Numbered from the stretch's first letter, positions 1,797 through 58,115 are shown. The stretch: 64,000 nt of DNA from an uncultured Dehalococcoidia bacterium (GCA_964492335.1 CAZBJX010000003.1:26919-90918), one strand, 5' to 3'. Notes: generated by a model from the letters alone, not told the origin. Made by a program: numbers and translations.

Positions 1797-1812
1797 TGTT
1801 AACTGACCCTCC

Positions 1813-2316: not shown

Positions 2317-2361
2317 TGCCTGGCGGGCAAGTGAAGATTGCCAGTGCGGAGGCCGATGCCG

Positions 2362-9487: not shown

Positions 9488-9659
9488 GTGTCGCCTGTGG
9501 GGCCGCCGGGTGGAGCCGCAAGCTATTGTAGCATGGGCCACACACCGGGGCAATCGCGGCTGCGGCCTGTTCTCCGGGGGCGGTTGGCCCTGGCTTCCAG
9601 GGGCTGGCCGCAGGGCATGGGACGGGCGGCAGCGCGGGGCCCGGGGCAGCCGCCCCGGG

Positions 9660-33533: not shown

Positions 33534-35429
33534 CTACCGCCGGCCCAGGCTGTACCCCGCGATGGCGGAGATGGAGACCAGGGCCAGCGCACCCGCCGCG
33601 CCCAGGAGGCCCCAGGCCCACCCCGGGAATGGGGAACGCCCGGCGCCGCCCCCCCTGGCGACGATGGCCCACCGACTGAAGTGGCTGGTGGAGGCCATCA
33701 GAGTCTGACCCTCCGCATCCACCGTGGTATCGGCCACTACCCACTTGCCGGCCACCGCGTCAAGGTAGCACAGGGCGAGGTTGCCCGGTTCTCCCTTCGC
33801 TGCGTCCAGGTCGCTGTCGGAGTACCTGGCCCATATGGTCACTTCCCGGTTAAGCTGGTCCGGGCCCTCGATGTCGAAGAAGGTATCCGCGGAACGGTAG
33901 CCGGACACGCCCTGGAGGGGATCATCCCCGGTCCCCTCCGCAATCACCAGGGTGAAGGCCCGGCCGGCGGCGCCGGCGGGGATGTGGAGGGTGATGGCCC
34001 CGTCGCTGGTCTGGATGATGGCGGGGTTGTCGGCGCCCACCGTGGTCCAGGCCAGCGCGTCCATGACCAGCACGCATGCTCTCTTGATCCTGGTGTCGGA
34101 CCCGGACCTGCCCGTGACCGTCAGGGTCACCGTATAGGCCCCCGTTTCCTCGTAAGTGAACGAGGGGTTCCGCTCGGTGCTGTCCGTGATGTCGTCGCCG
34201 TCAAGGTCCCATTCCCAGGTGAGAATGTCCCCCAGGGAGCGGTCCTCGAACCGGACTTCGAGCGGGGCCAGCCCCGCGGCCCGGGCAGCCGCGAAATCCG
34301 CCTTGACCCCCATGATGGTCATCAGCGGGCAGCCGTCCGAGGCCCCGTAGACCCCGGTGTACGGCAGGTGCGTGTCACCGATCCCGTCGCCGGCGGCCCT
34401 GCCGCCGGTGCCGTCGTCCAATCCGGTGTAGTCGCTCCAGTAGTTCCCCACGATGCCGGAGTACTTCTGTCCCTGGTATGCGTAGTAGATGGGCTGCGGC
34501 GACACCCAGGAGTTGGCGACCTCGTTGCCGGCCACGACGTTACCCAGGGCATTGTCCGACAGGGTGTTGAGGTACACCGCGTGGCCCCCGGTCAGCCCCG
34601 CCATGTCGATCCCGTAGCGACCGTTGTTGGAGATGGTGTTGGAGGCGATGGTGTTTCCGGGGTTGCCGGCAATGAGTATCCCGTTGCCCCGGTTATCGTT
34701 GAAGGCGTTGTTCATGATGGTGATCCGGGCGGTCATGCTCCGGAGTGCTATGCCGTGCTCGCCGTTGGAGCTGCAGGCATTGTCCATGACGCTGCTGTTG
34801 TACGTATCGATCATGCAGATCCCGGTCTGCACAGAGGAGCAGATGACATTGCGGCGGATGAGCCAGTCGTCGCAGCCCTCCACGTAGACTCCGTGCAGGT
34901 TACGGTGCTGGGGGTCCCAGCCGATGCGACAGTCCTCGATCACCGAGCCGCTGGAGTGCGTGGCCAGCACCCCCGCCCTCTGGCTGTACCCCGGCGTCAT
35001 CATCTCTGCCGGGGCGTCCGCACCGTAGATGTCCAGGTTCTTGAGGATGACCCCGTCGGCATAGGATATCTCGAATACCGGCGCCAGCGGGCTCTTGGCC
35101 CTCACCTGGGGCCTGGCGCCCGCCTGGTCGTAGCTGGTTATGGTGACGGGCTTGTCGATCAACACGTTCTCGACGTAGTCATCGGTCTCCTCGTTGTTGT
35201 CATCCGCCAGCCGTATCGTGTCCCCGGGGTCGACCCGGGAGACCGCGTGGGAGATGGTCCGCCACGGGTTGCCCTCGCTGCCCGTCCCCCTTATGTTGCT
35301 TCCCAGGTAGCTGACGTAGTAGGTATTGCCGGCTGCCCGGGCCGGGGCCGGCGCGGCGGAGATGGAGGACATGGCGGCGGCACCGGCGAGCGCCACCAGC
35401 ATCAGGAGCGCCAGGCCCTTCCTAATCAT
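33534..35429 (-). CDS. secreted right-handed parallel beta-helix (pectin-lyase fold) + PKD-domain protein with C-terminal W-rich motif + TM anchor
   Basis: Signal peptide MIRKGLALLMLVALAGAAA. NosD-like PbH1 repeats (GI.L..S....I..N.I..N...GI). PKD domain PLEVRFEDRSLGDILTWEWDLDGD...YTVTLTVTG. C-terminus FPGWAWGLLGAAGALALVSISAIAGYSLGRR. Confidence 0.7.
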   Translation of the reverse strand: MIRKGLALLMLVALAGAAAMSSISAAPAPARAAGNTYYVSYLGSNIRGTGSEGNPWRTISHAVSRVDPGDTIRLADDNNEETDDYVENVLIDKPVTITSYDQAGARPQVRAKSPLAPVFEISYADGVILKNLDIYGADAPAEMMTPGYSQRAGVLATHSSGSVIEDCRIGWDPQHRNLHGVYVEGCDDWLIRRNVICSSVQTGICMIDTYNSSVMDNACSSNGEHGIALRSMTARITIMNNAFNDNRGNGILIAGNPGNTIASNTISNNGRYGIDMAGLTGGHAVYLNTLSDNALGNVVAGNEVANSWVSPQPIYYAYQGQKYSGIVGNYWSDYTGLDDGTGGRAAGDGIGDTHLPYTGVYGASDGCPLMTIMGVKADFAAARAAGLAPLEVRFEDRSLGDILTWEWDLDGDDITDSTERNPSFTYEETGAYTVTLTVTGRSGSDTRIKRACVLVMDALAWTTVGADNPAIIQTSDGAITLHIPAGAAGRAFTLVIAEGTGDDPLQGVSGYRSADTFFDIEGPDQLNREVTIWARYSDSDLDAAKGEPGNLALCYLDAVAGKWVVADTTVDAEGQTLMASTSHFSRWAIVARGGGAGRSPFPGWAWGLLGAAGALALVSISAIAGYSLGRR

Positions 35430-38031: not shown

Positions 38032-38273
38032 TCCCTGTGCCTGCGCCGGCGGATACTGTCTGCCAGCAACAGCGCGGCGCCCGCCAGGAGGAAGTAGAAG
38101 GCGCAGAAGGCCAGGCGGTCCGACAGGCCGCGCAGTGGCCAGGTCACGGCGCTGAGAAGGAGAAGCCCGAAGGCGGCCAGGATGGGGCCGCGAGGCTCCC
38201 AGCGGTGCCGCACCGCCAGGGCGCAGTACAGGGCTATCAGGGCCGGCGGGACCAGGTCAAAGACGTAATTCAT
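38028..38273 (-). CDS. small membrane protein (2 TM)
   Basis: 81 aa, two hydrophobic helices; 4-nt overlaps with both flanking YfhO-like genes suggest translational coupling. Confidence 0.45.
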   Translation of the reverse strand: MNYVFDLVPPALIALYCALAVRHRWEPRGPILAAFGLLLLSAVTWPLRGLSDRLAFCAFYFLLAGAALLLADSIRRRRHRE

Positions 38274-38280
38274 GGCAGGT

Positions 38281-40608
38281 CTACTTCCCGGCCCCGGCCA
38301 CCAGGCTTGTCACCGAGGGGTAATCGAATACGAACTCGATGTGGTGCTGGCCGCCGGTGACATACGCTCCGGCCAGGACCCCGTTGACCCGCAGCAGGCC
38401 GGACCGCTGGCCGTCGATGTACACCTTCCACCACGGGTTGTGGAAGTAGCAGAGGGAAACGATGCCGTTCCCGCCTGCGTCTACGTCGAAGGACAGCCCG
38501 CGGGCCGTTATCGTGTACCCGCTGATGCGGGTCTCCGGGAGGGCTGTCTGCTGCCCTCGCGTCTTCATGAGACGGGGAATATCGCTGTACCGGGACCACT
38601 GGAAGGAGGGGTCGGTGATGGAGGCCACGTCTCCCCAGACCGCGGCCACGCTGCTCTGGAAGTAGTCGGTGCTGAAGTGTCGCTTCAGTCCGCTCCAGGA
38701 GCGGAAGAGATACAGGGAGATGAAGGGGTCCTCGCTGGGTATGAAGATGGTCGAGTCCATCGAGTAGAACCGGACCTCCTCCGGTGACTTCTTCACTTCG
38801 TAGAGGTAGATCCTGTAGTAGTCGTTGTCCAGGACCCCCCGGAAGATGAGGGGGTCGGCCGGACCGTTGGAGAGCGCGGACAGCTGCTCTATCTTGTCCC
38901 GGTGGTAGTCCGTCATGGTCTCCGGGGCCGGGGGGAGCTTCCCCCATATGACTGCGTAGTAGTCGATGGCCAGCAGGTTCGAGTAGTAGGCCAGATGGTC
39001 CTCGTCCCTGACCAGGCGCTCCTCCATGGCGTGGGAGAAGGTGGTGACCTCCGTGGTCTGGTTCCAGGGAAGAGAAGTGGAAGCCATCTCTACCAGGCGC
39101 ACCTCCCCATTCATATCGAAGACGCCGGTGCAGTACTCCGCCTGGACGCCGAGGCTGGGGTAGAACTGTATGCGGACATTGCCCTCGGTCCCGGCTATGG
39201 AGTCCAGGACGTAGTGCTGCCACTGGTCGAACTGGTCCCTCTCGACGATCCGTTGGTGGTAGAAACCGAAGTAGGGCGAGAAGTCCAACACCATGACCAG
39301 CACCAGCACGGCCGGGATCAGGCGGCCCGGCCGCAGCCGGCCGGCAGAGAAGCGCCGGGGGCCGCGCCACCGCAGGGACCTGGCAGACTGGCAGGCCAGG
39401 GCGAAGACCACCGGCAGGCAGAGAGCGAAGCAGTAGTAGAACCGGAGTGTGACCCGCATTCCTTTGAGGACCGGCACGGCCTGCCTCAGGATGGGGAAGA
39501 GCGGGCCGTAGATGCCCATTGACAGGAGCAGGAAAGCCAGTGAAGCCGCCACGAAGAAGAGGAGCCTGGCGGCATGGCGACGGTTCTTCTCCAGACTTAC
39601 CAGGAGGACCGCCCCCAGCAGGATAGCGAAGGCGATGGGCCCCGAGTAGTGCTCGGCGTGCGGCATGGTCCAGGTGTCCATGGCCGAATACGCCCTGGAT
39701 CCGAAGGTCTGCATGAAGTTGTGGAAGGTGAAGTAGCGCAGGCCCGCCCCTATCTCCTCGGCAGTCAGGCCGCTGAAGTAGTCGTATTCCCGGATCACCG
39801 TGACATAGAAGGAGAACGGGACCAGCAGGAGCAGGGCGGTGAGCAGGACCCACAGCTTGTTGGCCCGGGCGATGGAGAGGAGCTGCCGGGGACCTGTTCT
39901 CCTGGCCCACAGGGAGAGCAGGGCGTAGGGGATGTAGAACAACAGGAAGATGACCGCATACTCGATCTGGCTGAGCAGGACGAAGGTGATGCAGACGGCC
40001 AGCAGGAACAGGGCGAGCCCCGATCTCCTTTTGAGGAAGAGGTCCGTCAGCAGAAGGATCAACGGCATGATGGCATAGGCGCCCAGTATCTCGAAGAGCC
40101 CCCAGAACATCATGGACTGGGTATGGACCGGCAGCACGATGTAGATCACCGCGCCCAGGAAGGCCGTCAGCGCATCTGCCGTGAGGTGTTTCAGGTAGAA
40201 GTACATGGACAGCCCGGCCAGGGCGAACAGGCCTATCAGCGCGATGTTGTAGGCGACAGCGGTGGAACTGGTGACCAGGTAGAGGGGAAGCATCGCGTAG
40301 AACACCCCCGGCGGCACCATGCCGAAGAAGGGCATGCCCCCCATCCACAGCGGGCTCCACGTGGGCAGCTGATGGAAGGTGACCACGGACTCCTTGAACC
40401 AGTCGAGCCAGGCCGCGCTCATGGTGATGTCTCCGAACGTGGTCTGGCCGAGGTTCAGAAGGGGCCTGGTGAGGTACAGGGAGATGGCTGTCAGCAGGAG
40501 GACGGCCAGGATATCGCTTCTGTATCGGCGCAGGGTCCGGACCACGCGGGAACACAGCCGCTCCGGTGCCCGCGCTGTCTGACCTGCTTCATGGTGCTCT
40601 CGGCTCAT
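38281..40608 (-). CDS. YfhO family membrane protein (putative polyprenyl-phosphate-sugar-dependent glycosyltransferase, paralog 2)
   Basis: 775 aa; multi-TM N-domain, C-terminal beta-rich domain ending YFHNPWWKVYIDGQRSGLLRVNGVLAGAYVTGGQHHIEFVFDYPS, characteristic of YfhO C-termini. Confidence 0.65.
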   Translation of the reverse strand: MSREHHEAGQTARAPERLCSRVVRTLRRYRSDILAVLLLTAISLYLTRPLLNLGQTTFGDITMSAAWLDWFKESVVTFHQLPTWSPLWMGGMPFFGMVPPGVFYAMLPLYLVTSSTAVAYNIALIGLFALAGLSMYFYLKHLTADALTAFLGAVIYIVLPVHTQSMMFWGLFEILGAYAIMPLILLLTDLFLKRRSGLALFLLAVCITFVLLSQIEYAVIFLLFYIPYALLSLWARRTGPRQLLSIARANKLWVLLTALLLLVPFSFYVTVIREYDYFSGLTAEEIGAGLRYFTFHNFMQTFGSRAYSAMDTWTMPHAEHYSGPIAFAILLGAVLLVSLEKNRRHAARLLFFVAASLAFLLLSMGIYGPLFPILRQAVPVLKGMRVTLRFYYCFALCLPVVFALACQSARSLRWRGPRRFSAGRLRPGRLIPAVLVLVMVLDFSPYFGFYHQRIVERDQFDQWQHYVLDSIAGTEGNVRIQFYPSLGVQAEYCTGVFDMNGEVRLVEMASTSLPWNQTTEVTTFSHAMEERLVRDEDHLAYYSNLLAIDYYAVIWGKLPPAPETMTDYHRDKIEQLSALSNGPADPLIFRGVLDNDYYRIYLYEVKKSPEEVRFYSMDSTIFIPSEDPFISLYLFRSWSGLKRHFSTDYFQSSVAAVWGDVASITDPSFQWSRYSDIPRLMKTRGQQTALPETRISGYTITARGLSFDVDAGGNGIVSLCYFHNPWWKVYIDGQRSGLLRVNGVLAGAYVTGGQHHIEFVFDYPSVTSLVAGAGK

Positions 40609-45041: not shown

Positions 45042-46022
45042 TCACGGGCGGGCGTATCCCCGGGGGTGCTCCCTGGTCCAGGCCCAGGCGCTGGCCATGA
45101 TGTCCTCCAGGCCGGGGCGCCGGGGCGACCATCCCAGCTGCGCCCTGGCCCGCGCGGAGCTGGCCACCAGGACTGCCGGGTCGCCGGCCCGCCTGCCGGC
45201 CGGTGTGACCGCTATGCGGGCCCCGGTGATCTTCCTGGCCGCCTCTATGACCTCCAGCACGGAGTAGCCCTCGCCGTTGCCCAGGTTGAAGGCCCCGGCC
45301 CCTATGGCGTCGATCTTCTCCAGGGCCAGTATGTGCGCCGCGGCGATGTCGGCCACGTGGACGTAGTCCCGGACGCAGCTCCCGTCCGGGGTGGGGTAGT
45401 CGGTGCCGAACACCGAGACCGGCCGGCCGCTCATGGCCGCCTTGAAGATGTTGGGGACCAGGTGCGTCTCGGGCACGTGGTCCTCGCCCAGGCGGTCGGT
45501 GGCCCCGGCGGCGTTGAAATAGCGGAAGGACACGTGCTTGAGGCCGTAGGCCGTGCCGTACCAGCCCAGGACCTGCTCGAACTGGAGCTTGGAGAGGCCG
45601 TAGGCGTTGATGGGCTCCCGGGGGTGGTCCTCTTCCATGGGGGCGCTGCGGGGCTCGCCGTAGACCGCCGCTGTGGAGGAGAAGACCATGCGGCGCACGT
45701 TGTGCCGCCGCATGACGTTCAGGAGGTTCAGGCCGCCGACGATGTTGGTGGCGAAGTACCGCGCGGGGTCCGTGGTGGAGTACTCCACCACCGTCTCGCC
45801 GGCCATGTGCATCACGGCGTCGGGGGGCATTTCCGCGAAGGCGGCATCGAGGGCGGCGGCGTCGCAGATGTCCGCCTGGAGGAAGCGGGCGGCGCCGGGG
45901 ACCGCTTCGCGGTGCCCCTGCTGCAGGTTGTCGACTACCAGGACCCGGTGCCCCGCGGAGAGCAGGCCTTCGGTGACCACGCTGCCGACATAACCGGCGC
46001 CCCCGGTGACCAGGACATTCAC
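45042..46022 (-). CDS. galE: UDP-glucose 4-epimerase
   Basis: MNVLVTGGAGYVGS; SSTAAVYG; catalytic YGLSK. Confidence 0.85.
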   Translation of the reverse strand: MNVLVTGGAGYVGSVVTEGLLSAGHRVLVVDNLQQGHREAVPGAARFLQADICDAAALDAAFAEMPPDAVMHMAGETVVEYSTTDPARYFATNIVGGLNLLNVMRRHNVRRMVFSSTAAVYGEPRSAPMEEDHPREPINAYGLSKLQFEQVLGWYGTAYGLKHVSFRYFNAAGATDRLGEDHVPETHLVPNIFKAAMSGRPVSVFGTDYPTPDGSCVRDYVHVADIAAAHILALEKIDAIGAGAFNLGNGEGYSVLEVIEAARKITGARIAVTPAGRRAGDPAVLVASSARARAQLGWSPRRPGLEDIMASAWAWTREHPRGYARP

Positions 46023-46627
46023 GGCTCTCTGCCCCCCTGCCCGGCCCGCCGCCCGGGGCCGAAGAGCGAGGTCTCCACCAGGGAGCAGATGATGTGCCCG
46101 GCCAGCATATGGGCTTCCTGAATGCGGGGCGTGTCCGTCGACGGGATGGAGAGGACGTGATGGGCCAGGTCCCGGAGGGTGCCCCCGGCGCCGGTGAAGG
46201 CCACGGTGACTGCCCCCAGTTGCCGCGCCGCGTCGATGCCGCGGACCACGTTGGAGGACTCCCCGCTGGTGCTCAGGCCGACCACCACGTCGCCCCTGGC
46301 CGCCAGGCCCCGCACCTGCCGGGCGAACACCTCTTCGTAGCCGAAGTCGTTGGCGATGGCGGTCAGGGACGCCGTGCTGGCCGTCAGGGAGATGGCCGGC
46401 AGGGGCTCCCGGAACAGGGTGAACTTGCCGGCGAGCTCGCCGGCCAGGTGGTCGGCGTCGGCGGCGCTGCCGCCGTTGCCGAAGAGGAGCACCTGGTTGC
46501 CCCGCCTCAGGGCGCGCACCATGGCGTCGGCGATATCCACAATGATGCCGGCCTGCTCCTCCAGGGCGGCGCAGAGCGCGACGCTCTCCCGCACCTGGCT
46601 GGCGACGACCTTCTTCTTGCCCCTCAT
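46019..46627 (-). CDS. gmhA: sedoheptulose-7-phosphate isomerase (SIS domain)
   Basis: 202 aa; LFGNGGSAADADHLAGEL, GLSTSGES. Confidence 0.8.
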   Translation of the reverse strand: MRGKKKVVASQVRESVALCAALEEQAGIIVDIADAMVRALRRGNQVLLFGNGGSAADADHLAGELAGKFTLFREPLPAISLTASTASLTAIANDFGYEEVFARQVRGLAARGDVVVGLSTSGESSNVVRGIDAARQLGAVTVAFTGAGGTLRDLAHHVLSIPSTDTPRIQEAHMLAGHIICSLVETSLFGPGRRAGQGGREP

Positions 46628-46631
46628 GTGC

Positions 46632-47663
46632 CTAGTCCCCGCTCACTTCCCAGCTCTGCATGCCGCGCAGGTCGAAGGAGAAGCCCACGATCTTCCCCCC
46701 GGCCGCCTCCAGCCTCTCCGCCACGATGTGCCACTTGTCGAACTCGCACAGGAAGAGGAGGTAGCCCCCTCCGCCCGCTCCCAGGAGCTTGCCGCCGATG
46801 GCCCCGTTGTTCCTGGCCACCTCGTACAGCTCGTCGATGGCGGGGTCGCTGATCTTGGAGGAGAGCCTCTTCTTGCAGACCCAGGCCTGGTGCATGAGGG
46901 TGCCGAACTCGTGCAGGTGCCCCAGCAGGAGGGCGTTCTTCATGCTGTAGGCCAGGGCCTTCGTCTCCTGGAGGGCCTGGACCACCGTCTCCTTCTTGCG
47001 GACGTAGGAGTCCACCTGGTCGTCCAGGATGCCGGCGGAAAGCCTGGTCCCGCCGGTGTAGCACAGCATGAGCCGGTACTCCAGCTCGCTGATGGTATCC
47101 CAGTTGATGCGCAGCGGGTTGACGATGGTGGTCCTGCCCAGGAACTCGATGAAGTTGAAGCCCCCGAAGGTGGCCGCGTACTGGTCCTGCCTCCCCCCCT
47201 TGATCCTGGCCTCTTCGCGCTCGATGCGATAAGCCAGCTCGGCGATGTCGTAGGAGGTCAGCGGCATCTTCAGCATCTGCTTGAAGGCGCCCACAATGGC
47301 CACCACCAGGGCGCTGGAGGTGCCCAGACCGGAGCCCGGGGGGGCATCGGTGTGCAGGAAGAGGTCGTAGCCGCTGGTCAGGCCCATGCCCCGTATGGCC
47401 GCCTTCACCAGGTCCAGCTGCCCGTCGTACGCCAGGCCGGTGCTGACGTCGTAGCGGGTGACGATGTCGTAGTCCAGCGAGGTGACGCTGATGGAGCCGT
47501 CCTGGCGCGCCTTGAGGGTGCAGTAGGCGTACTTGCTGATGGTGGTGCTCAGGACCGCGCCGCCCTGCTCCTCGGGATAGGGGGGGACGTCGGTGCCGCC
47601 GCCGCCGAAGCTGATGCGCAGGGGCGCGCGGCTGCGTATGGTGGTGGCCTTCATCTCATGCAT
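46632..47663 (-). CDS. hddA: D-glycero-alpha-D-manno-heptose 7-phosphate kinase (GHMP kinase)
   Basis: 343 aa; APLRISFGGGGTD and PPGSGLGTSSALVVA motifs. Confidence 0.78.
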   Translation of the reverse strand: MHEMKATTIRSRAPLRISFGGGGTDVPPYPEEQGGAVLSTTISKYAYCTLKARQDGSISVTSLDYDIVTRYDVSTGLAYDGQLDLVKAAIRGMGLTSGYDLFLHTDAPPGSGLGTSSALVVAIVGAFKQMLKMPLTSYDIAELAYRIEREEARIKGGRQDQYAATFGGFNFIEFLGRTTIVNPLRINWDTISELEYRLMLCYTGGTRLSAGILDDQVDSYVRKKETVVQALQETKALAYSMKNALLLGHLHEFGTLMHQAWVCKKRLSSKISDPAIDELYEVARNNGAIGGKLLGAGGGGYLLFLCEFDKWHIVAERLEAAGGKIVGFSFDLRGMQSWEVSGD

Positions 47664-48216
47664 CTTTGAGCAGCCATTCTACCGCCTCGAAGAGGCCAAC
47701 GGCAACATGGTCCGCCTCGGCGCCGGGGCCGGAAGCGGGGTGGCCCTCCCGGTCGCGGGGCAGCTCCGCGGCGTCCGGCCTCAGCCAGACGGTGCGGCAC
47801 CCGGCGGCCCTGCCCGCCTGCACGTCCTTGATATCGTCCCCGATCATGTAGGAGCGGCCCAGGTCGATCCCCATGTCCCGGGCGGCCTGCAGCAGCAGGG
47901 CCGGTTTGGGCTTCCGGCAGGCGCACCCCTCGTCGGGGTGGTGGGGGCACAGGTAGATGGCATCGATACGGGCCTTCTCCCGGGCCAGCTCCGCCTCCAT
48001 CTTCGCGTGGATGCGCGACAGCGTCTCCAGGGTGAAGTAGCCCCGCGCCAGGCCCGACTGGTTGGTGATCACCACCACCTTGAAGCCGCGCTCGTTCAGC
48101 GCCCTGACGGCGGCGGGTACGCCGGGGAGGATTGCGAAGTCCCGGGGGTCGCGGCAGTAGTGGACGTCCGGAGCAATGGTGCCGTCCCGGTCCAGGAATG
48201 CGGCTCGGTGCGACAT
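47656..48216 (-). CDS. gmhB: D,D-heptose 1,7-bisphosphate phosphatase (HAD-IIIA)
   Basis: AAFLDRDGTI (DxD), VITNQSG, Zn-binding CxH...CxC (CPHHPDEGCACRKP), IGDDIKD. Confidence 0.8.
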   Translation of the reverse strand: MSHRAAFLDRDGTIAPDVHYCRDPRDFAILPGVPAAVRALNERGFKVVVITNQSGLARGYFTLETLSRIHAKMEAELAREKARIDAIYLCPHHPDEGCACRKPKPALLLQAARDMGIDLGRSYMIGDDIKDVQAGRAAGCRTVWLRPDAAELPRDREGHPASGPGAEADHVAVGLFEAVEWLLKDA

Positions 48217-48231
48217 GAGGACCTGCGGCGC

Positions 48232-48822
48232 CTACTCCCGCAGGCAGGAAGTGATGACGTGGCCCAGCATGAGGTGGACGTCCTCCACTTTGTCGATGTT
48301 GGCGTCCGGGACCATGATGCAGAAGTCGACCAGGTCCTTCAGGCGGCCCCCGTCCAGCCCGGTCAGGCCCACGGTGACGGCCCCGCAGGCCCGGGCCGCC
48401 ATGACGCCGTTGAGGACATTGGAGGACAGGCCGCTCCCGCTGATGCCGATGACCACGTCTCCGGGCTCGACCTGGTCCTGGACCTGCTGCGCGAAGATGC
48501 TGTCGTAGGCGGTGTCGTTGGCCCAGGCGGAGATGAGGGACATGTTGTCGGTCAGGGCCGTGGCCCGCAGCCGCGGTCTGCCGTTGCTGCCGGCGCCCTT
48601 GGCCAGGTCGCAGGCCAGGTGGGACGCAGTGGCGGCGCTGCCTCCGTTGCCGAAGAGAAAGACCCTTCTGCGGTGTGAGCGGGCCTCCCGCAGCAGGCGG
48701 ACGACCCGTTCGATCTGGTCCACGGGCAGGTTGCTCAGGGTGGCCCGCATGCCGGAGAAGTAGGCCGATATGGCCTGGCTGGTGGAGTCCAACGTCACCC
48801 GGGCCATCACTTCATACTTCAT
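48232..48822 (-). CDS. gmhA: second sedoheptulose-7-phosphate isomerase paralog (SIS domain)
   Basis: 196 aa; LFGNGGSAATASHLACDL, GISGSGLS. Confidence 0.75.
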   Translation of the reverse strand: MKYEVMARVTLDSTSQAISAYFSGMRATLSNLPVDQIERVVRLLREARSHRRRVFLFGNGGSAATASHLACDLAKGAGSNGRPRLRATALTDNMSLISAWANDTAYDSIFAQQVQDQVEPGDVVIGISGSGLSSNVLNGVMAARACGAVTVGLTGLDGGRLKDLVDFCIMVPDANIDKVEDVHLMLGHVITSCLRE

Positions 48823-49711: not shown

Positions 49712-50542
49712 TCAGCCCATGGCCCGGGTCATGATCAGCGCGGCTGCCACCATAGGGAGGACGACCAGGGCCGCGAAGGCCAGGGCGCCCACCGCCGCGG
49801 CCCTGGCGGGGGACAGAGAGTAGTTGTGCCGGATGGCGGTCACCCCCAGGAAGAAGACCCACAGGCAGAAGAGCGGGAAGGCCACCTGGTAGGCGGCGTT
49901 GGCCCGGTTGGAGGCCAGCAGGGCCCGGAGCATGATCAGGGGGGCGGCGAAGAGCCCCGGGAGGTAGGCCAGGCACAGCCCGCAGAAGATGCCGCGGAGC
50001 CCTCCCCGGGGGGCCGGTGCGGGCCCGGGGCGGGGCGCCGCCGGCTCTCCCGGAGCGTTGACAGGGCCTTCCCGGGGGCCCGCCGGCTCTCCCGGAGCGT
50101 TGACGGGGTCTTCCCGGGGGCCGGCGCACGGCTCGCGGAAGGGGCCGCCGGGCCCGTCCCGGGGCCCCTCCTGAAGGGCGCTCCTGTCCCTGAGGGCGGC
50201 GGCCGCCAGGTGCACGAAGGCCGCCTGCAGGGACAGCACGGCCATGAACAGGGCCACCCAGAGGGGCAGGATGGACCAGAGGGTGAGGGTCCCCTTCGGC
50301 AGGTCCAGGATGTCCTCGAAGAGCTCAGGGGGGCTGGGCACCAGGACCAGACCGGTGACGACGGCCACCGACAGGGCCGTCAGCAGGGACAGGGCCACGG
50401 GCCGGCGGCGGCTGGCCTGGGCCAGGGTGGGTGACGGGGACAGCAGCACTCCGGCCAGGGTGTCCAGGGCCTCCAGGGCTGCCCGGCCCCATCTCGCGGG
50501 ACGGGAGAGGTCGCCGGCCTCGGTGGTGCGCATCAGCGCCAT
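49712..50542 (-). CDS. membrane protein with internal Pro-rich tandem repeat
   Basis: Start MALMRTTEAGD; 4-5 TM segments; cytoplasmic loop GPREDPVNAPGEPAGPREGPVNAPGEPAAP from a 48-bp DNA tandem duplication (~50025-50120). Confidence 0.5.
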   Translation of the reverse strand: MALMRTTEAGDLSRPARWGRAALEALDTLAGVLLSPSPTLAQASRRRPVALSLLTALSVAVVTGLVLVPSPPELFEDILDLPKGTLTLWSILPLWVALFMAVLSLQAAFVHLAAAALRDRSALQEGPRDGPGGPFREPCAGPREDPVNAPGEPAGPREGPVNAPGEPAAPRPGPAPAPRGGLRGIFCGLCLAYLPGLFAAPLIMLRALLASNRANAAYQVAFPLFCLWVFFLGVTAIRHNYSLSPARAAAVGALAFAALVVLPMVAAALIMTRAMG

Positions 50543-50603
50543 TCTACCCCATCGCCGCCGAAGACAGGAGGCGGCGCATGCGCACAAGCGAGTGCAGCCT
50601 TGG

Positions 50604-50927: not shown

Positions 50928-52127
50928 ATGGCGAAGAAGAAGTACGAGCGTACCAAGCCCCATGTCAATATCGGCACCATCGGTCACGTGGACCACGGCA
51001 AGACGACCCTGACCTCGGCCATCACCAGGGTCCTGGCCACGCAGGGCAAGGCTCAGTTCCGTACTTATGACGCCATTGACAACGCCCCCGAAGAGAAGGC
51101 CCGGGGCCTGACCATTCAGATCTCCCACATCGAGTATGAGACGGAGAAGCGCCACTACGCTCACGTGGACTGCCCCGGCCATGCCGACTACATCAAGAAC
51201 ATGATCACCGGCGCCGCGCAGATGGACGGGGCCATCCTGGTGGTCAGCGCCTTCGACGGCCCCATGCCCCAGACCCGGGAGCACATCCTGCTGGCGCGCC
51301 AGGTGCAGGTGCCCTATATCCTGGTGGCCCTGAACAAGGTCGACATGATGGAGGACGAGGAGCTTCTCGACCTGGTGGAGCTCGAAGTCCGGGACCTGCT
51401 GACCAAGTACCAGTTCCCCGGGGACGAGACCCCCATTGTCAGGGTGAGCGGGCTCAAGGCCGGCGAGTGCGGCTGCGGCAAGAGGGATTGCCAGTGGTGC
51501 GGCCCCATCTGGAGCCTGATGGATGCGGTGGACTCCTACATCCCCGAGCCCAAGAGGGACAAGGACCGCCCGTTCCTGATGGCGGTGGAGGACGTGTTCA
51601 GCATCAAGGGGCGGGGCACCGTTCCCACCGGCCGTGTTGAGCGCGGCACCATCAAGCCGGGGGACGAGATCGAGATAGTGGGCCTGGGCCCCACCAAGAA
51701 GATCGTGGCCACCAGCCTGGAGATGTTCCACAAGACCCTGGACTACGCGGAGCCCGGGGATGCCGTGGGGGTGCTCCTGCGGGGCGCGGAGCGCGACGAT
51801 ATCCAGCGGGGCCAGGTGCTGGCGGCGCCCGGCTCCATCACCCCGCACACCGCTGCGGAGACCGAGGTCTACATACTGAGCAAGGAAGAGGGCGGGCGGC
51901 ACACCCCTTTCTTCAACGGGTACAAGCCGCAGTTCTACATTCGGACGACGGACGTGACCGGCTCCATCGAGCTTCCCCCGGGTGTCGAAATGGCCATGCC
52001 GGGCGACAATGTGAAGATGAAGATCAGGCTGATCACCCCCGTGGCCATGGACGAAGGCCTGAGGTTCGCCATCAGGGAAGGCGGGCGGACCGTTGGCTCC
52101 GGGGTGATCACCAAGATCATCGAGTAG
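50928..52127 (+). CDS. tuf: elongation factor Tu
   Basis: [33 protein letters not shown]; DCPGHADY; NKVD; AGGAGG RBS 9 nt upstream. Confidence 0.97.
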
Positions 52128-52136
52128 GGATGGTAA

Positions 52137-52304
52137 GTGGCCAAGAAAGCAGATGTCAGGGGCGTAATCTATCTGGCCTGCACACAGTGCAAGGAAAGGA
52201 CATACACTACCAGTAAGAACCGGAAGAACGACACTCAACGCCTGGAGTTGAAGAAGTTTTGTCCCCGGTGCAGGGCCCAGACCCTGCACAAGGAGACAAA
52301 ATAG
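52137..52304 (+). CDS. rpmG: 50S ribosomal protein L33
   Basis: GTG start; [55 protein letters not shown] (55 aa) is the L33 C4 zinc ribbon. Not in ORF track (too short, alternative start). Confidence 0.85.
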
Positions 52305-52522
52305 TGTCCTCCAAGAAGGTCAGCGCCATCAAGGGCCGGCTCCCCAGGTTCAGGTTCATCGGTGACATCATCGGGGAACTGAAGAAGGTGACCTGGCCCT
52401 CGCGGGATGAGGCTCTGAGGCTGACGGTGATGGTGCTGATCGTGTGCGCTGTAGTGGGTGTGATACTGGCAGTCCTGGATTATGGCTTCGGCCGGCTGGT
52501 CCAGGATGTCTTTTTGCGGTGA
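52304..52522 (+). CDS. secE: preprotein translocase subunit SecE
   Basis: GTG start overlapping the rpmG stop (TAGTG). LKKVTWPSRDEALRLTVMVLIVCAVVGVILAVLDYGFGRLV is the single-TM SecE core. The ORF-track Met at 52259 would overlap rpmG out of frame. Confidence 0.75.
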   Translation: MSSKKVSAIKGRLPRFRFIGDIIGELKKVTWPSRDEALRLTVMVLIVCAVVGVILAVLDYGFGRLVQDVFLR

Positions 52523-52528
52523 TGGGAC

Positions 52529-53077
52529 ATGGAAGATAAGGACAGGCGATGGTACATGGTGCACACCTACACCGGTCATGAGAACCAGGTGGAGGTGAAC
52601 CTGAGGCAGCGCATCAAGTCCATGGGGGCGGAGGGCGAGATCCTCGATGTCCTCATCCCCAACATCGAGGTCATCGAGATCAAGGACGGCCAGCGGCGGA
52701 CCATGTCCCGCAGGCTCTTCCCCGGGTACGTCCTGGTCCAGATGCACATGAGCGACAGGAACTGGTCTGTCGTGAGGAACACCCCGGGGGTGACCAGCTT
52801 CGTCAGCACCCAGGACGAGCAGGGGAAGCTCATCCCGGCCGCCCTGGAGCAGGAGGAAGTGGATGCCATCATGGACCGGATCAAGGCCGGGGCGCCCCAG
52901 GTCAAGGTGGGCCTGTCGAAGGGCGAGAGCGTTCGCATCGTTGACGGGCCGTTCCTCGATTTCGCCGGCGTGATTGATGAGATCAATCCCGAGAAGGGTA
53001 AGGTAAAGGTGCTGGTGTCGTTCTTCGGGCGGGAGACATCCGTCGAGCTTGATTTTCTGCAGATAGAGAAACTATAG
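52529..53077 (+). CDS. nusG: transcription termination/antitermination factor NusG
   Basis: [14 protein letters not shown] (NGN domain), C-terminal [24 protein letters not shown]. Confidence 0.9.
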
Positions 53078-53079
53078 AG

Positions 53080-53502
53080 ATGGCAAAGAAGGTAAAGGCA
53101 ATCGTCAGGATCGCGCTGCAGGCGGGCAAGGCCACGCCTGCGCCCCCTATCGGCCCCGCGCTGGGGCAGCACGGGGTCAACATCATGGCCTTCTGCAAGG
53201 AGTACAACGACCGCACGGGCACCCAGGAGGGGAGCATCATTCCGGTGGAGATCACCGTGTACGAAGACCGCTCCTTCACGTTCATCCTCAAGACCCCTCC
53301 GGCGGCGGACCTGCTGAGGAAGGCCCTGGGGGTGGAGACCGGGAGCGGAGAGCCGAAGACCAAGGTCGTGGGGAAGCTGTCCCGTGACAAGCTGCGTGAG
53401 ATCGCCAGGGCCAAGATGAAGGACCTGAACGCCGTCGACCTGGAGGCCGCCACCAGGATGGTCGAGGGCACGGCCCGCAGCATGGGAATTGAGGTTGAGT
53501 GA
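53080..53502 (+). CDS. rplK: 50S ribosomal protein L11
   Basis: [43 protein letters not shown]. Confidence 0.95.
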
Positions 53503-53505
53503 TCT

Positions 53506-54213
53506 ATGCGCAGTCGTGGTAAGAAGTATCAGGAAGCCGCCAAGCTGGTAGACCCCGGGAAGAACTACAACCTGGCCGAGGCGGTCGATCTGGCCAGGAA
53601 GACCTCGTATGTCAAGTTCGACCAGACGGTGGAGCTGCACTTCCGCATGAACCTGGACCAGCGGGCCGCGGACCAGCAGATCCGGGGCATCGCGCTGTTG
53701 CCCCACGGCCTGGGCAAGAAGATCCGGGTGCTGGTCTTCGCCCAGGGCGAGGCGGCCAGGATCGCCGAGGAGGCGGGGGCGGACACCGTCGGGGCCGAGG
53801 ACCTGATCAAGAAGATCGAGGAGGGGTGGCTGGAGTTCGATGTGGCCGTGGCCACCCCGGAGATGATGGGGAAGATCGGCAAGCTGGGCAAGACCCTGGG
53901 GCGGAAGGGGCTGATGCCCAACCCCAAGCTGGGGACCGTGGTGGGCCAGGCTGACCTGCCGCGGGTGGTCCGGGATTCCCGCAAGGGGCGGTCCGAGTTC
54001 CGGCTGGACCGCACGGGCAGCGTCCATATGGCGGTGGGCAAGGCCAGCTTCGAGCCAGGGCAACTGGTGGATAACCTGGCGGCTGCCATCGATGCCGTGG
54101 TGAGGGCCAGGCCGAGCGGCGCCAAGGGGCAGTTCATCAAGAGCGCCACCGTCACCACCTCAATGGGCCCCGGGATTCCGCTGGACCTGAGGGCTGTCGG
54201 GGCGGCAACCTAG
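53506..54213 (+). CDS. rplA: 50S ribosomal protein L1
   Basis: [11 protein letters not shown]...YNLAEAV...[12 protein letters not shown]...IRVLVFA...GAD.VG.EDL..KI..GW..FD. Confidence 0.95.
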
Positions 54214-54266
54214 GGGGCTGGACGCGCAGCCAGTCCCCACCGCCGGGTCCTGAGCCCCGCGTCCTG

Positions 54267-54298
54267 TTGCACGACCAGTCGCCGGATGCCTTATATTC
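54267..54298 (+). promoter_or_regulatory. putative promoter for the inserted HMGCS-like/thiolase operon
   Basis: TTGCAC (54267-72), 18-19 nt spacer, TTATAT/TATATT (54291-97); GGGAGG RBS at 54303-08. Confidence 0.4.
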
Positions 54299-54316
54299 GC
54301 TAGGGAGGACAGGATT

Positions 54317-55759
54317 ATGGTAGGCATAGTGTCATACGGTGCTTATGTTCCCATCTACAGGCTGAGCCGCGAGGCCATCGGGCAGATGTGGAGCAAGGGC
54401 GTCGGCAAGGGCGAGAGGGCCATTGCCAACGCGGATGAAGACAGCATCACCATGGGCGTGGAGGCGGTCATCGACTGCCTGCGCGGTATGGACCGCAGCC
54501 AGGTGGACGGGCTCTACTTCGCCACGGACTCGCCCCCGTACATCGAGAAGCAGTCGGCCAGCATTGTCCGGGCCGCCGCCGATCTGCGGGAGGACATCCT
54601 CACCTTCGACGTGTCCCACTCGCTGCGGGGCGCCGGGTCGGCCATGAGGGCGGCAGCGGACGCAGTGGGTGCCGGCAGCGCCAGCAAGGTCCTGGTGGCG
54701 GCCTCGGAGAGGCGCATACCGCCCCCGAACTCCGACTTCGAGCTGCAGGTCGGCGACGGGGCGGCGGCGTTCCTCATGGGCGACACCGACGTGGCGGCGG
54801 AGCTTGAAGGGAGCTACCACCTGAGCGCCGAGTTCCTGGATGTGTGGCGCAAGCCCGGGGACACCTACGTGCAGACCACCGAGGAGCGCTTTCTGCGGGA
54901 TGAAGCCTATATGAAGATGACGCCGCAGGCGGTGGCGGGGCTCCTCCAGAAGCTCAAGCTCACTCCGAAGGACATCACCAGGGCGGCCTTCTATGCTACC
55001 GACCCCAGGTCCCACGCCTCGATCGCCAGGGCCATGAAGCTGGACCCCAAGACCCAGGTGCAGGACCCCCTGCTGGAGAGCGTGGGCAACACCGGCACCG
55101 CCCTGGCCCCCATGGTCCTGGTGGCGGCCCTGGAGGAGTCCAGGCCGGGGGACCGGATTCTCTTCGCCACCTACGGGGACGGCGCAGATGCCTTCCTGTT
55201 CAAGGTCACCGACCAGATCGAGAAGATCAGGGACCGCCGGGGCATCAAAAAGCACGTGGCGTCCAAGATGATGCTGCCCAACTACGGCAAGTACGTGGAG
55301 ATCCGCGAGCTCATGGAGTGGGAGTCCCCGCGCCGCGGGGCGCGGCGGTCGGCGCTGCCGGTGCTCTGGCGCGAGAGGAAGATGATCTACGGCCTGTACG
55401 GCCAGGTGTGCCGGTCATGCGGCAACATACAGTACCCCCGCCAGAGGATCTGCATCTTCTGCCAGGCCAAGGACAACTTCGATCCCGTCCGGCTGTCGGA
55501 CAAGACCGGGAAGGTCTTCACCTTCAGCATGGACCAGCGGGCCCAGGAGATCGTCCTGCCCAAGGTGTTCACCGTGGTCAACCTGGACGGCGGCGGGCGC
55601 TTCTACAGCGTGATGACGGACCGCGACACCAGCAAGATAACCGTGGGCATGCCCGTGGAGATGACCTTCCGCATTCAGATGGGCCCCTCGGAGGGCCTGC
55701 CCCTGGAGGGCTCGGGGTTCTACAACTACTTCTGGCGGGTACGCCCCATCAGGTGCTAA
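54317..55759 (+). CDS. archaeal-type HMG-CoA synthase-like protein fused to C-terminal DUF35 (zinc ribbon + OB fold); canonical active-site Cys apparently absent
   Basis: N-terminus MVGIVSYGAYVPIYRLSREAIGQMW...ANADEDSITMGVEA resembles archaeal HMGCS. Last ~130 aa carry CRSCGNIQYPRQRICIFC plus a beta-rich OB region, the DUF35 layout. Only one Cys (DCLRG) in the first 350 aa; the expected catalytic Cys position reads TFDVSHSLRGAGSAM. Confidence 0.7.
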   Translation: MVGIVSYGAYVPIYRLSREAIGQMWSKGVGKGERAIANADEDSITMGVEAVIDCLRGMDRSQVDGLYFATDSPPYIEKQSASIVRAAADLREDILTFDVSHSLRGAGSAMRAAADAVGAGSASKVLVAASERRIPPPNSDFELQVGDGAAAFLMGDTDVAAELEGSYHLSAEFLDVWRKPGDTYVQTTEERFLRDEAYMKMTPQAVAGLLQKLKLTPKDITRAAFYATDPRSHASIARAMKLDPKTQVQDPLLESVGNTGTALAPMVLVAALEESRPGDRILFATYGDGADAFLFKVTDQIEKIRDRRGIKKHVASKMMLPNYGKYVEIRELMEWESPRRGARRSALPVLWRERKMIYGLYGQVCRSCGNIQYPRQRICIFCQAKDNFDPVRLSDKTGKVFTFSMDQRAQEIVLPKVFTVVNLDGGGRFYSVMTDRDTSKITVGMPVEMTFRIQMGPSEGLPLEGSGFYNYFWRVRPIRC

Positions 55760-55771
55760 GGAGAGATAACG

Positions 55772-56989
55772 ATGGAAAGCTTGAAGGACAAAGTAGCCAT
55801 AGTCGGCATGGGGTGCACCCCCTTCGGTGAGTTCTGGGACAAGGACATCGTGGACCTCATAGTGGAGGCGTCCGACGAGGCGTTCACCGACGCCGGGGTC
55901 ACGGCCAAGGACATGCAGGCGGCCTGGGTGGGGTACACCGTGCAGGACAACGCCATGACCGGGATCATTCTCTCCAGCGCCCTGCAGCTGCAGTTCATAC
56001 CGGTGACCCGGGTGGAGAACGCCTGCGGGACCGGCGCCGAGGTCATCAGGGGAGCGGTGATGTCGCTGGCCTCCAAGACCTATGACCTGGTGCTGGCGGT
56101 GGGTTTCGAGAAGATGAAGGATGCCGGGTTCGGCGGCATCGGGCAGGCCTGGCCGGGCAAGTGGCACCCGGTATACGGCGCGGCGCCCGAGGTGGGCGGC
56201 GCGGTGGGCCGGTATGCCCTGGCGGCTACCAAGTACTTCTCCACCTACGGGCTGAGCCCGGAGCAGGGCAAGACCATGCTGGCCAAGGTGTCGGTCAAGG
56301 CCCACTACAACGGCTCCCGCAATCCCCGGGCCATGCTGCGCAACCGGATCACCATCGAGCAGGTCATGAACGCCCCCATCATCGCCTGGCCCCTGGGCCT
56401 GTTCGACTGCTGCGGCATCTGCGACGGGGCGTCGGCGGCCATCCTGTGCCGCACCGAGGACGCGAAGCGCTACCGCCCCAATGGCGACTACATCACGGTG
56501 AAGGCCTCGGCCATCGCCTGCGGCCCGGGGTGGGGCAAGGAGCGGGTGAACTACGGGTACACCGTCTGGGAAGAGACCGAGGCGGCGGCCATTCAGGCCT
56601 ACGAGATGGCCGGCATCAAGGACCCCCGCAAGGAGCTCAGCATGGCCGAGGTCCACGACTGCTTCTCCATCGCCGAGGTGATAGCCTGCGAGTCCATGCA
56701 CCTGTGCGAGAAGGGCCATGCCCGGGAGGACATCGAGTCCGGCGCCTGGGAGCAGGACGGCGACCTTCCGGTCAATGTCAGCGGCGGGTTGAAGGCCTTC
56801 GGGCACCCGGCGGGCGCCTCCGGCGGCCGGGAGGTCTACGAGTTCTATAAGCAGTTCCAGGGGAAGGCCGAGGACCCCTCGCGGCAGTTGAAGAAGGACC
56901 TGAAGATGGGGCTGTCGCACAACCAGGGCGGGCACCCGGGCAACTTCGTGGCCGGGATCACCATAGTCGGCGAGCCGCCGTCCAGGTAG
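55772..56989 (+). CDS. thiolase (archaeal/SCP-x-type acetyl-CoA C-acyltransferase)
   Basis: 405 aa; VAIVGMGCTPFG, nucleophile region VENACGTGAEV, C-terminal catalytic Cys/His region (DCFSIAEV, GGHPGNF). Confidence 0.82.
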   Translation: MESLKDKVAIVGMGCTPFGEFWDKDIVDLIVEASDEAFTDAGVTAKDMQAAWVGYTVQDNAMTGIILSSALQLQFIPVTRVENACGTGAEVIRGAVMSLASKTYDLVLAVGFEKMKDAGFGGIGQAWPGKWHPVYGAAPEVGGAVGRYALAATKYFSTYGLSPEQGKTMLAKVSVKAHYNGSRNPRAMLRNRITIEQVMNAPIIAWPLGLFDCCGICDGASAAILCRTEDAKRYRPNGDYITVKASAIACGPGWGKERVNYGYTVWEETEAAAIQAYEMAGIKDPRKELSMAEVHDCFSIAEVIACESMHLCEKGHAREDIESGAWEQDGDLPVNVSGGLKAFGHPAGASGGREVYEFYKQFQGKAEDPSRQLKKDLKMGLSHNQGGHPGNFVAGITIVGEPPSR

Positions 56990-57011
56990 GAGGCACGGCG
57001 GGTCCGGTTTG

Positions 57012-57180
57012 TGATACAATCGAGTATTGCTGAAGACAGCAGGTGCCCCTGGGCCTGCCGGCGCAGGGCCGCAGACCCGGGGGCTTAATGCGGTAAGTCC
57101 GCCTGCCGAGGCGAAATGACCACAGGCAAACTGGTCCATGGGAGCCCCGGGGCGGCATGCTTCGGGGCTCATTGTTTGTG
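57012..57180 (+). promoter_or_regulatory. rplJ leader: extended -10 promoter (TGnTACAAT) and attenuator hairpin
   Basis: TGATACAAT at 57012-57020; hairpin GAGCCCCG-gggcggcaugcuu-CGGGGCUC at 57142-57170 followed by AUUGUUUGUG, the classic L10-leader arrangement. Confidence 0.5.
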
Positions 57181-57204
57181 CGAGGAGGGGACAGGGGAAG
57201 AAGG

Positions 57205-57735
57205 ATGAAGAAAGAGAAGAAACCTGAGGCGGTCCAGAGGACCCAGAAAGCGCTCACCGAGTCCCGCATGGGCGTGGTCACCGACTACCGCGGCATGACC
57301 GTGGCGCAGATGAGCAAGCTGCGGCGGATGCTGGCGGAGTCCGGCGTCGAGTATCGGGTGGTCAAGAACAACCTGGCTGTCATCGCCGCCAGGAATGCCG
57401 GCAGGGAGCAGATCACGGACCTGCTGGTGGGCCCCTCGGCGGTGGCCTTCGGCCGGGACGACGAGGTGACGGCCGCCAGGCTGCTGGTGGAGTATATCCG
57501 GGCCAACAGGCCGCCCCTCTCCATCAGGGGGGGGTTCCTGCATGACCGGGTGCTGACTGCGGACGAGGTGGCGGCGCTGGCCGCCATGCCGCCGCGGGAC
57601 TTCATGGTGGCCCGGGTGGTGTGGCAGATCAAGTCCCCGCTGAGTATGCTGGTAACCGTGCTCAGCGCCAACCTGTCGGGGCTGGCGCGTGTCTTGCAGG
57701 CCAGGAAGGAACAACTGGAAGGAGGATCCCGGTAA
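57205..57735 (+). CDS. rplJ: 50S ribosomal protein L10
   Basis: Start [13 protein letters not shown]; [33 protein letters not shown]; TAATG overlap with rplL. Confidence 0.92.
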
Positions 57736-58115
57736 TGAACAAGGAAGAGATCATCGCCGCCATCAAGGGCATGACGGTCCTGGAGCTATCCGAGCTGGTC
57801 AAGGCCCTGGAGACCGAGTTCGGGGTGAGCGCGGCGGCGGTGGCCATGGCCGCCCCTGCGGCCGGCCCGGCGGCGGCTGCCCCGGCGGCGCCGGTGGAAG
57901 AGCAGACCGCTTTCACGGTCATCCTCAAGGAGATCGGCGCCAATAAGATCAACGTGATCAAGGCGGTGAGGGAGTGCACCACCCTGGGCCTCAAGGAGGC
58001 CAAGGAACTGGTGGAGGCGGCGCCCAAGGCGGTGAAAGAGGGCGTCACCAAGGAAGAAGCGGCAGGCGTGATGTCCAAGCTGACGGCGGCCGGCGCCGTG
58101 GCGGAAATCACCTAG
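57735..58115 (+). CDS. rplL: 50S ribosomal protein L7/L12
   Basis: [31 protein letters not shown], Ala/Pro hinge, C-terminal domain [25 protein letters not shown]. Confidence 0.95.

Follow-up and report, generated by a model that had tools for sequence, protein, structure and literature searches.

A predicted pseudo-HMG-CoA synthase fused to DUF35, and its thiolase partner, between rplA and rplJ of Dehalococcoidia

Introduction

In the archaeon Methanothermococcus thermolithotrophicus, a thiolase, a hydroxymethylglutaryl-CoA (HMG-CoA) synthase, or HMGS, and a DUF35 protein form a complex that feeds the mevalonate pathway. Its HMGS is active and carries the catalytic tetrad E82, C114, H238 and N270 (6ESQ numbering), and its DUF35 protein is a separate subunit of 130 amino acids (aa). 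The subject of this report is a two-gene cassette that encodes an HMGS-like protein fused to DUF35, and a thiolase, at positions 54214-57204 of a 64,000-nucleotide (nt) stretch of DNA from an uncultured Dehalococcoidia bacterium (GCA_964492335.1, CAZBJX010000003.1:26919-90918). The whole stretch is referred to as the window.

Bacterial relatives of the archaeal complex have been surveyed by Liao et al. (2026, Nat Commun 17:2196; PMC12960953), who mined 1,030 bacterial HMGS/thiolase (ACAT)/DUF35 loci, 1,001 of them outside secondary-metabolite gene clusters. Their representative from Pseudomonas fluorescens, PfACAT/HMGS-DUF35, pairs a fused HMGS-DUF35 protein devoid of the E-C-H-N tetrad with a thiolase that has the Cys, HDxF and GHx motifs. 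Given acetyl-CoA, the complex formed neither HMG-CoA nor acetoacetyl-CoA; it does cleave acetoacetyl-CoA, and the substitution H294Y in HDxF nearly abolishes cleavage (PMC12960953).

Loss of active-site residues from an HMGS-like subunit was reported in 2018 for PhlA of the Pseudomonas Friedel-Crafts acylase, which is without Cys and Glu (PMC6392133). In this enzyme, PpATase, catalysis falls to the thiolase-like PhlC alone. A functional assembly depends on PhlA and PhlB, and activity requires expression of the whole phlACB operon, not the mixing of separately made subunits (PMC6392133). MucB by itself is insoluble and inactive (PMC12960953). DUF35 is the clamp that joins the dimer of the HMGS-like subunit to that of the thiolase in the archaeal, PhlACB and MucABC complexes alike.

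Comparison of the locus with described systems

Judged by its sequence, the pair of proteins encoded in the window appears to belong to the kind of system recently characterised in P. fluorescens and not to a new kind. Every sequence-level feature of the PfACAT/HMGS-DUF35 class is found: by comparison with the published features, the likeness extends to the fusion, the lost tetrad, the Cys, HDxF and GHx of the thiolase, and the absence of polyketide synthase (PKS) or nonribosomal peptide synthetase (NRPS) neighbours. The locus differs from the PfACAT/HMGS-DUF35 loci in that Asn270 is kept here (the tetrad positions read D-L-Y-N), in that the host belongs to the Chloroflexota, and in that the cassette is embedded in the rplKA-rplJL cluster, not in a locus of its own or a catabolic one. 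The novelty that the initial annotation implied for a tetrad-less fusion beside a thiolase was overstated, given that about 1,000 loci have been mined and one characterised in 2026 (PMC12960953), and that PhlA was known earlier (PMC6392133). The finding opens no new kind of biology. It does extend the tetrad-less HMGS-DUF35/thiolase family to Chloroflexota and Acidobacteriota.

The cassette and its immediate boundaries are as follows.

54214-57204, + strand: the cassette interval, reaching exactly from the rplA stop to the rplJ start
53506-54213, + strand: rplA (L1), the upstream boundary, with orthologues directly 5' of the cassette in relatives
54317-55759, + strand: ORF-A (open reading frame A), HMGS-like::DUF35 fusion, 480 aa
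54317-55321, + strand: HMG-CoA-synthase/KAS-III-like domain of ORF-A, aa 1 to about 335, predicted to be catalytically dead (D71/L103/Y/N in place of E/C/H/N)
55385-55471, + strand: DUF35 rubredoxin-like zinc ribbon of ORF-A, aa 357-385, PF12172 (zf-ChsH2), with C365, C368, C379 and C382
55487-55759, + strand: DUF35 OB-fold of ORF-A, aa 391-480, PF01796 (OB_ChsH2_C, match 391-452)
55772-56989, + strand: ORF-B, archaeal/SCP2-type thiolase, 405 aa
57205-57735 and 57735-58115, + strand: rplJ and rplL, the downstream boundary

Three further groups of enzymes resemble the pair in part. The HMGS-like part is matched best in structure, and the thiolase and DUF35 parts in sequence, by chains of the archaeal complex, whose thiolase shares HDCF and GHx with ORF-B; the complex is set apart by its active HMGS, its unfused DUF35 subunit and its place in the mevalonate pathway. 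The acylases PhlACB (PpATase, 5M3K/5MG5), CsATase (9SKH) and MucABC (SmaATase, 9VBO/9VBT) have in common with the pair an HMGS-like subunit without Cys and Glu, catalysis located in the thiolase-like subunit, and a three-part architecture. Unlike the pair, they have thiolase subunits that lost HDxF, they acylate phenolic or tetramate acceptors in biosynthetic clusters, and their DUF35 is unfused. Finally, the benzoylsuccinyl-CoA thiolase BbsAB (7PXP), Ltp2-ChsH2(DUF35) (6OK1) and the S. acidocaldarius thiolase/DUF35 share the SCP2-type thiolase fold, HDxF, dependence on DUF35 and a beta-oxidation-like context, whereas they have no HMGS-like subunit and their DUF35 either stands alone or is joined to a MaoC hydratase.

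ORF-A, an HMGS fold without its catalytic residues

Pfam models place ACP_syn_III and ACP_syn_III_C over residues 97-290 of ORF-A, and with the two DUF35 domains these matches confirm that HMGS-like and DUF35 parts are fused in one protein. The top NCBIfam models are both for HMG-CoA synthase, and both score below their cut-offs (NF003274/PRK04262, 227.5 against 244; TIGR00748, 167.8 against 353). In phmmer searches of PDB sequences, the best matches are PhlA (5m3k_A, 6e-36), archaeal HMGS (6esq_I, 2e-34) and 9skh_A, which is the CsATase chain of PhlA type; the C-terminal region finds the DUF35 subunit of the archaeal complex (6esq_E, 2e-14) and PhlB (5e-6). When an AlphaFold2 model of ORF-A was compared with known structures by Foldseek, 6esq_I ranked first (E = 4e-27), followed by PhlA-type and MucA chains, and the target-normalised TM-score of 0.81 against 6esq_I points to an HMGS fold of the thiolase superfamily.

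The nucleophile of the archaeal enzyme, Cys114, aligns with Leu103 of ORF-A (TFDVSHS-L-RGAG). All alignments agree on this placement, namely the phmmer alignments to 6esq_I, 5m3k_A and 9skh_A and three MAFFT alignments. The absence of the acyl-enzyme Cys, first read from a manual alignment with the advice that a proper one be made, is therefore upheld: Leu103 and no Cys occupies the position, and the Glu and His of the triad are gone too. Glu82 is replaced by Asp71 and His238 by Tyr, and Asn270 is kept as Asn. In the model, Leu103 follows the strand formed by residues 96-98 and lies just before the helix 105-119, approximately at the nucleophile site of the fold. C54 is, as had also been noted, the single Cys of the HMGS-like part; the others are C365, C368, C379, C382 and C480.

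Loss of the nucleophile extends beyond the window. No Cys is found at this position in any of the 120 best database homologues or in any of 95 genomic copies (about 215 in total), the latter drawn from Chloroflexota, Acidobacteriota, single genome bins labelled Clostridia and Desulfobacterales, and one Thermoproteota archaeon. The tetrad is absent also from two full-length proteobacterial homologues, and the consensus around the former nucleophile site among homologues is D-x-x-x-S-L-R. The four Cys of the zinc ribbon are invariant in two alignments of relatives. The HMGS fold is kept. Many positions show no variation even among relatives as low as 59% in identity, and ORF-A is therefore under selection and not decaying. 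It is predicted to be a pseudo-enzyme with an HMGS fold that lacks the active-site Glu, Cys and His, a subunit that is under strong purifying selection and has been duplicated along with its thiolase.

At the C-terminal tail of ORF-A (window 55720-55759) the pattern (F/Y)W(K/R)xRPxRC is conserved, and its last Cys is invariant in the close family. In more distant members this Cys shifts, giving WKCRPxR.

ORF-B, an intact thiolase

ORF-B scores 482 bits against the acetyl-CoA acetyltransferase model NF004810 (NCBIfam), well beyond the cut-off of 403, and its closest PDB match is 6esq_A (8e-61), the thiolase chain of the archaeal complex. What the initial annotation had likened to the archaeal thiolase/HMGCS/DUF35 complex does resemble it in all three parts, with 6esq_I, 6esq_E and 6esq_A as best matches. 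The thiolase motifs are Cys85, HDCF at 295-298 and GHP at 344-346, and all 67 relatives examined have the Cys, HDCF and GHP. At the CxS motif, ORF-B has C-G-T.

Position in the ribosomal gene cluster

The window contains the following genes on the rplK side of the cassette, together with rplA, and the tandem loci that are discussed below are listed with them.

Upstream of tuf, + strand: tRNA-Thr, tRNA-Tyr, tRNA-Thr
50928-52127, + strand: tuf
52259-52522, + strand: secE
52529-53077, + strand: nusG
53080-53502, + strand: rplK
L003:3325-8643; L015, L016, L018, L019 and L029; L085:10001-15369: loci in relatives with two tandem cassettes

The ORF layout agrees with the annotated insertion of two genes, both co-oriented, between rplA and the L10 leader. 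ORF-B starts 12 nt after the stop of ORF-A, and the spacer of 215 nt between ORF-B and rplJ contains the L10 leader. No second copy of the cassette is present in the 64-kb window, and no PKS or NRPS genes occur near the cassette, whose neighbours are ribosomal protein genes, a metallo-beta-lactamase-fold gene and bioY. Since the composition of the cassette is the same as that of its neighbours (GC 0.62-0.69; GC at third codon positions, GC3, 0.92-0.94), it is not a recent foreign insertion. Recent horizontal insertion is ruled out both by this match of GC and GC3 to the flanks and by a position common to relatives down to 56% identity.

A search of relatives for the same arrangement, suggested at the outset, found the order rplA-cassette-rplJ in 20 Chloroflexota species-representative genomes, mostly labelled Dehalococcoidia, with 56-92% identity to ORF-A; additional metagenome contigs have the same order. 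Two tandem cassettes lie between rplA and rplJ in 5 of the 20 genomes and in two lineages known from metagenomic contigs or metagenome-assembled genomes (L003 and L085). Compared with the pair in the window, the first pair of the tandem is 60-63% identical in the fusion and 65-68% in the thiolase, and the second pair 71-76% and 78-84%. The parallel divergence of fusion and thiolase copies, together with the 12-nt spacing, fits a specific partnership.

In a crude neighbour-joining tree, all copies in the ribosomal cluster form one clade with two paralogue sub-clades, and the copies outside are nested within these sub-clades. This tree suggests one old insertion, a tandem duplication and later relocations. 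The cassette would have inserted itself at the break that separates the rplKA transcription unit from rplJL, in the ancestor of a large Dehalococcoidia clade, and would then have been duplicated in tandem, with one copy probably relocating in the lineage of the window. A second pair away from the cluster is found in twelve genomes that have one cassette within it, among them the close relative CAYRGJ01 (L008 and L038), and the genome of the window probably carries one too. These second pairs (L030-L039, L048, L049) are 57% identical, read V-I-N-D at the tetrad positions, and adjoin genes for a short-chain dehydrogenase/reductase (SDR) and a 4HBT thioesterase.

No literature report of a thiolase cassette between rplA and rplJ was found. 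The architecture is known; what seems unreported is just its location within the ribosomal cluster, which is old and conserved. The conserved embedding in rplKA/rplJL exemplifies how a ribosomal gene cluster can capture a metabolic operon, and it could serve as a phylogenetic marker.

Transcription of the cassette

The candidate expression signals in the spacers on either side of the two genes are these.

54214-54316, + strand: spacer of 103 nt between rplA and ORF-A, with a GC-rich hairpin just after the rplA stop
54267-54272 and 54291-54296, + strand: promoter-like TTGCAC and TTATAT in this spacer, separated by an 18-nt gap
54303-54309, + strand: Shine-Dalgarno sequence GGGAGGA before ORF-A
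57012-57183, + strand: L10 leader, RF00557, 43.0 bits against a gathering score of 44, with a terminal hairpin and U-rich tail at 57142-57170
57012-57020, + strand: extended -10-like TGATACAAT, within the L10 leader

ORF-A and ORF-B, each of them preceded by a Shine-Dalgarno sequence, are almost certainly co-transcribed, to judge from their arrangement. The promoter of its own that the initial annotation assigned to the cassette is not established. The promoter scan made no call at TTGCAC-N18-TTATAT upstream of ORF-A; the boxes are conserved only in the closest relatives (L006 and L007), and their spacing differs in L008. The rplA/ORF-A spacer folds no better than shuffled sequences (z = -0.16), and no terminator was found after rplA. 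Because the promoter is uncalled and poorly conserved and a terminator was not found, a separate promoter and read-through from rplKA are both possible.

The L10 leader of the window falls just below the gathering score but lies where such an element belongs, ahead of rplJ. Of the orthologous sites, those of L003 (51.9 bits) and L001 (45.4) pass, and that of L008 scores 42.8. A terminator-like site is called in the leader, which folds with z = -2.4. In the lineage of L085 (GCA_040961635.1, JBFOMZ010000279.1) and L086, the rplJ start lies 14 nt after the stop of the second thiolase (L085:15367-15386), and the leader retained in the window, L001, L003 and L008 is not detectable before rplJ. Since rplJ there abuts the thiolase without a leader, rplJL would have to be transcribed with the cassette in that lineage.

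Discussion

The pair is probably one heteromeric 3-ketoacyl-CoA thiolase with a non-catalytic scaffold subunit, rather than a step of the mevalonate pathway. This function is the likeliest because the P. fluorescens counterpart makes no HMG-CoA but cleaves acetoacetyl-CoA. Of the two roles that the initial annotation offered for the HMGS-like part, non-catalytic scaffold or repurposed enzyme, it is the former that the literature now supports (PMC12960953, PMC6392133). ORF-B would be the sole catalytic subunit, with Cys85 as acyl-enzyme nucleophile assisted by the HDCF and GHP motifs. ORF-A may act as scaffold and solubility partner and may form part of a shared interfacial chamber for CoA and substrate. 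The complex would most likely carry out reversible thiolysis or condensation of acetoacetyl-CoA or another short 3-ketoacyl-CoA in metabolism of the beta-oxidation type, and would make no HMG-CoA.

The gene context of copies outside the ribosomal cluster supports a role as an acyl-CoA thiolase. In the Dehalococcoidia locus L089, a copy 70% identical is followed by genes for a hotdog protein, a MaoC+SDR fusion, a crotonase and a CoA-transferase, and three 4HBT thioesterase genes lie upstream. L091 has an SDR and a 4HBT thioesterase near its copy, and the more distant "VIND" paralogue, named for its four tetrad-position residues, has an SDR downstream. The homologues on Sphingomonas and Variovorax megaplasmids, full-length and 31-35% identical, occur in the order SDR, MaoC, fusion, thiolase, and in Variovorax an acyl-CoA dehydrogenase and a CoA-transferase come after the thiolase.

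Several observations weigh against assignment as a scaffolded thiolase. The AlphaFold2 model of ORF-A is of moderate confidence (pLDDT 69). Identity between the query and the fused homologues of Proteobacteria is only 31-35%, and the P. fluorescens proteins were compared by description. No beta-oxidation genes adjoin the cassette in the ribosomal-cluster loci to indicate a substrate. The retained Asn270 and the strongly conserved S-L-R leave room for ligand binding or new catalysis in the HMGS-like pocket. In Blastocatellia (Acidobacteriota), moreover, the fusion stands without a thiolase within about 6 kb, so that it need not always partner a neighbouring thiolase; there it may partner hydratases. 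At these Blastocatellia loci (L059-L076; for example L072:3103-7431), genes for a family III CoA-transferase, a MaoC dehydratase and a FAS1_DH hotdog protein precede the fusion, which lacks the tetrad there too.

It is conceivable, though rather unlikely, that the complex is a biosynthetic one. The thiolase would then run in the Claisen direction, and the pseudo-HMGS::DUF35 protein would recruit a ketoacyl-CoA reductase and a MaoC dehydratase, like the DUF35-mediated, ACP (acyl carrier protein)-independent fatty-acid synthase of archaea. Precedent comes from S. acidocaldarius, in which condensation is reportedly driven by a thiolase/DUF35 pair that binds the reductase together with the MaoC dehydratase (bioRxiv 10.1101/2024.07.05.601840); such recruitment keeps the biosynthetic direction open. 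SDR and MaoC genes flank many of the copies outside the ribosomal cluster, and growth-linked expression would explain why the cassette lies in a growth-regulated gene cluster. Against this stands the failure of the P. fluorescens complex to make acetoacetyl-CoA from acetyl-CoA alone, a weak test since the step is endergonic without coupling. The window also has the ordinary type II fatty-acid parts FabD and ACP, and in Proteobacteria the presence of acyl-CoA dehydrogenase and CoA-transferase genes alongside speaks for catabolism.

Whether the ribosomal location has meaning of its own can be considered at two levels. One reading, quite improbable, holds that the cassette has been fixed in the ribosomal cluster throughout a large Dehalococcoidia clade ever since a single ancient insertion, that in at least one lineage it has taken the place of the L10 leader immediately before rplJ, and that this reflects real co-regulation of acyl-CoA and acetyl-CoA metabolism with ribosome synthesis, or even a translation-related moonlighting of the pseudo-HMGS::DUF35 protein by analogy with Trf. 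Very unlikely, too, is the proposal that the HMGS-like domain has gained a new role, catalytic or regulatory, or that the DUF35 part moonlights in translation, with the ribosomal position reflecting that function. The S-L-R motif and the retained Asn are indeed strongly conserved around the former active site, the position is kept in the 20 species-representative genomes and extends to L085, where rplJ follows the thiolase by 14 nt with no L10 leader, and the DUF35 protein Trf acts in archaeal translation recovery (PMC6996347). However, Trf resembles other DUF35 proteins in structure and not in sequence (PMC6996347), close paralogues outside the ribosomal cluster adjoin genes for acyl-CoA enzymes, and the rplKA/rplJL gap is a natural break between transcription units at which an insertion is tolerated.

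Acetylation of a small-molecule acceptor by a Friedel-Crafts C-acyltransferase of the PhlACB/MucABC type is hardly credible for the pair, even though PhlA is the top PDB sequence match of ORF-A (6e-36) and both PhlA and MucA are likewise without the tetrad. The known enzymes have lost HDxF from the thiolase subunit and have a remodelled pocket (PMC12960953), whereas HDCF is invariant here; PhlC aligns with ORF-B only over residues 262-390, the C-terminal third; in the known systems DUF35 is a separate subunit; and no PKS or NRPS lies near the present cassette. The reading was rejected on the retained HDCF and the gene context.

The weakest alternative, that the two genes encode the genuine first two mevalonate steps (acetoacetyl-CoA thiolase and HMGS with fused DUF35, as in the archaeal channelling complex), has almost no probability: chains of the M. 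thermolithotrophicus complex are the closest solved structures of all three parts and some databases call relatives "hydroxymethylglutaryl-CoA synthase", but Glu82, Cys114 and His238 are replaced here and in every homologue examined, tetrad replacement in the archaeal enzyme abolishes HMG-CoA formation (PMC12960953), the scores lie under both NCBIfam HMGS cut-offs, and the window contains IspH of the methylerythritol phosphate (MEP) pathway and, as its sole GHMP kinase, an HddA-like protein. The tetrad, the cut-offs, IspH and the HddA-like kinase together led to its rejection. No mevalonate kinase is present in the 64-kb window, the only GHMP kinase being best matched by the heptose-7-phosphate kinase HddA. 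Dehalococcoidia have been reported as MEP-only (PMC6107057). The initial annotation, which had pointed to IspH and found a classical mevalonate role not obvious, was right on both counts; with the lost tetrad and the reported MEP-only status of the group (PMC6107057) that role is now unlikely. Database names pose a likely annotation trap, in that such proteins are often called "HMG-CoA synthase", which would wrongly suggest a mevalonate pathway in MEP-using Dehalococcoidia. The ispH gene is located as follows.

4278-5177, - strand: ispH, TIGR00216, 240 bits against a cut-off of 188

Other features of the window

Because acpP and fabD are in the window, the organism has ordinary ACP-dependent fatty-acid synthesis. 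These genes and other features away from the cassette are listed here.

1536-3270 and 5916-6749, - strand: acpP and fabD, of type II fatty-acid synthesis, and a gene for a crotonase-family enoyl-CoA hydratase
6763-8247, - strand: 494-aa protein with two HisG-like (ATP phosphoribosyltransferase) stretches, apparently a duplicated HisG
8222-9553, - strand: HisZ/HisS-like gene adjoining the duplicated-HisG gene
33534-40608: very large membrane proteins, which with sugar epimerase, aminotransferase and glycosyltransferase genes lie upstream of the heptose-phosphate cluster
46019-48822, - strand: heptose-phosphate cluster, made up of the HddA-like GHMP kinase (46632-47663), two SIS-domain proteins and a HAD phosphatase
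49712-50587, - strand: very GC-rich (0.76-0.77) gene for a membrane protein with the Pro-rich direct repeat GPRE(D/G)PVNAPGEPA, present twice

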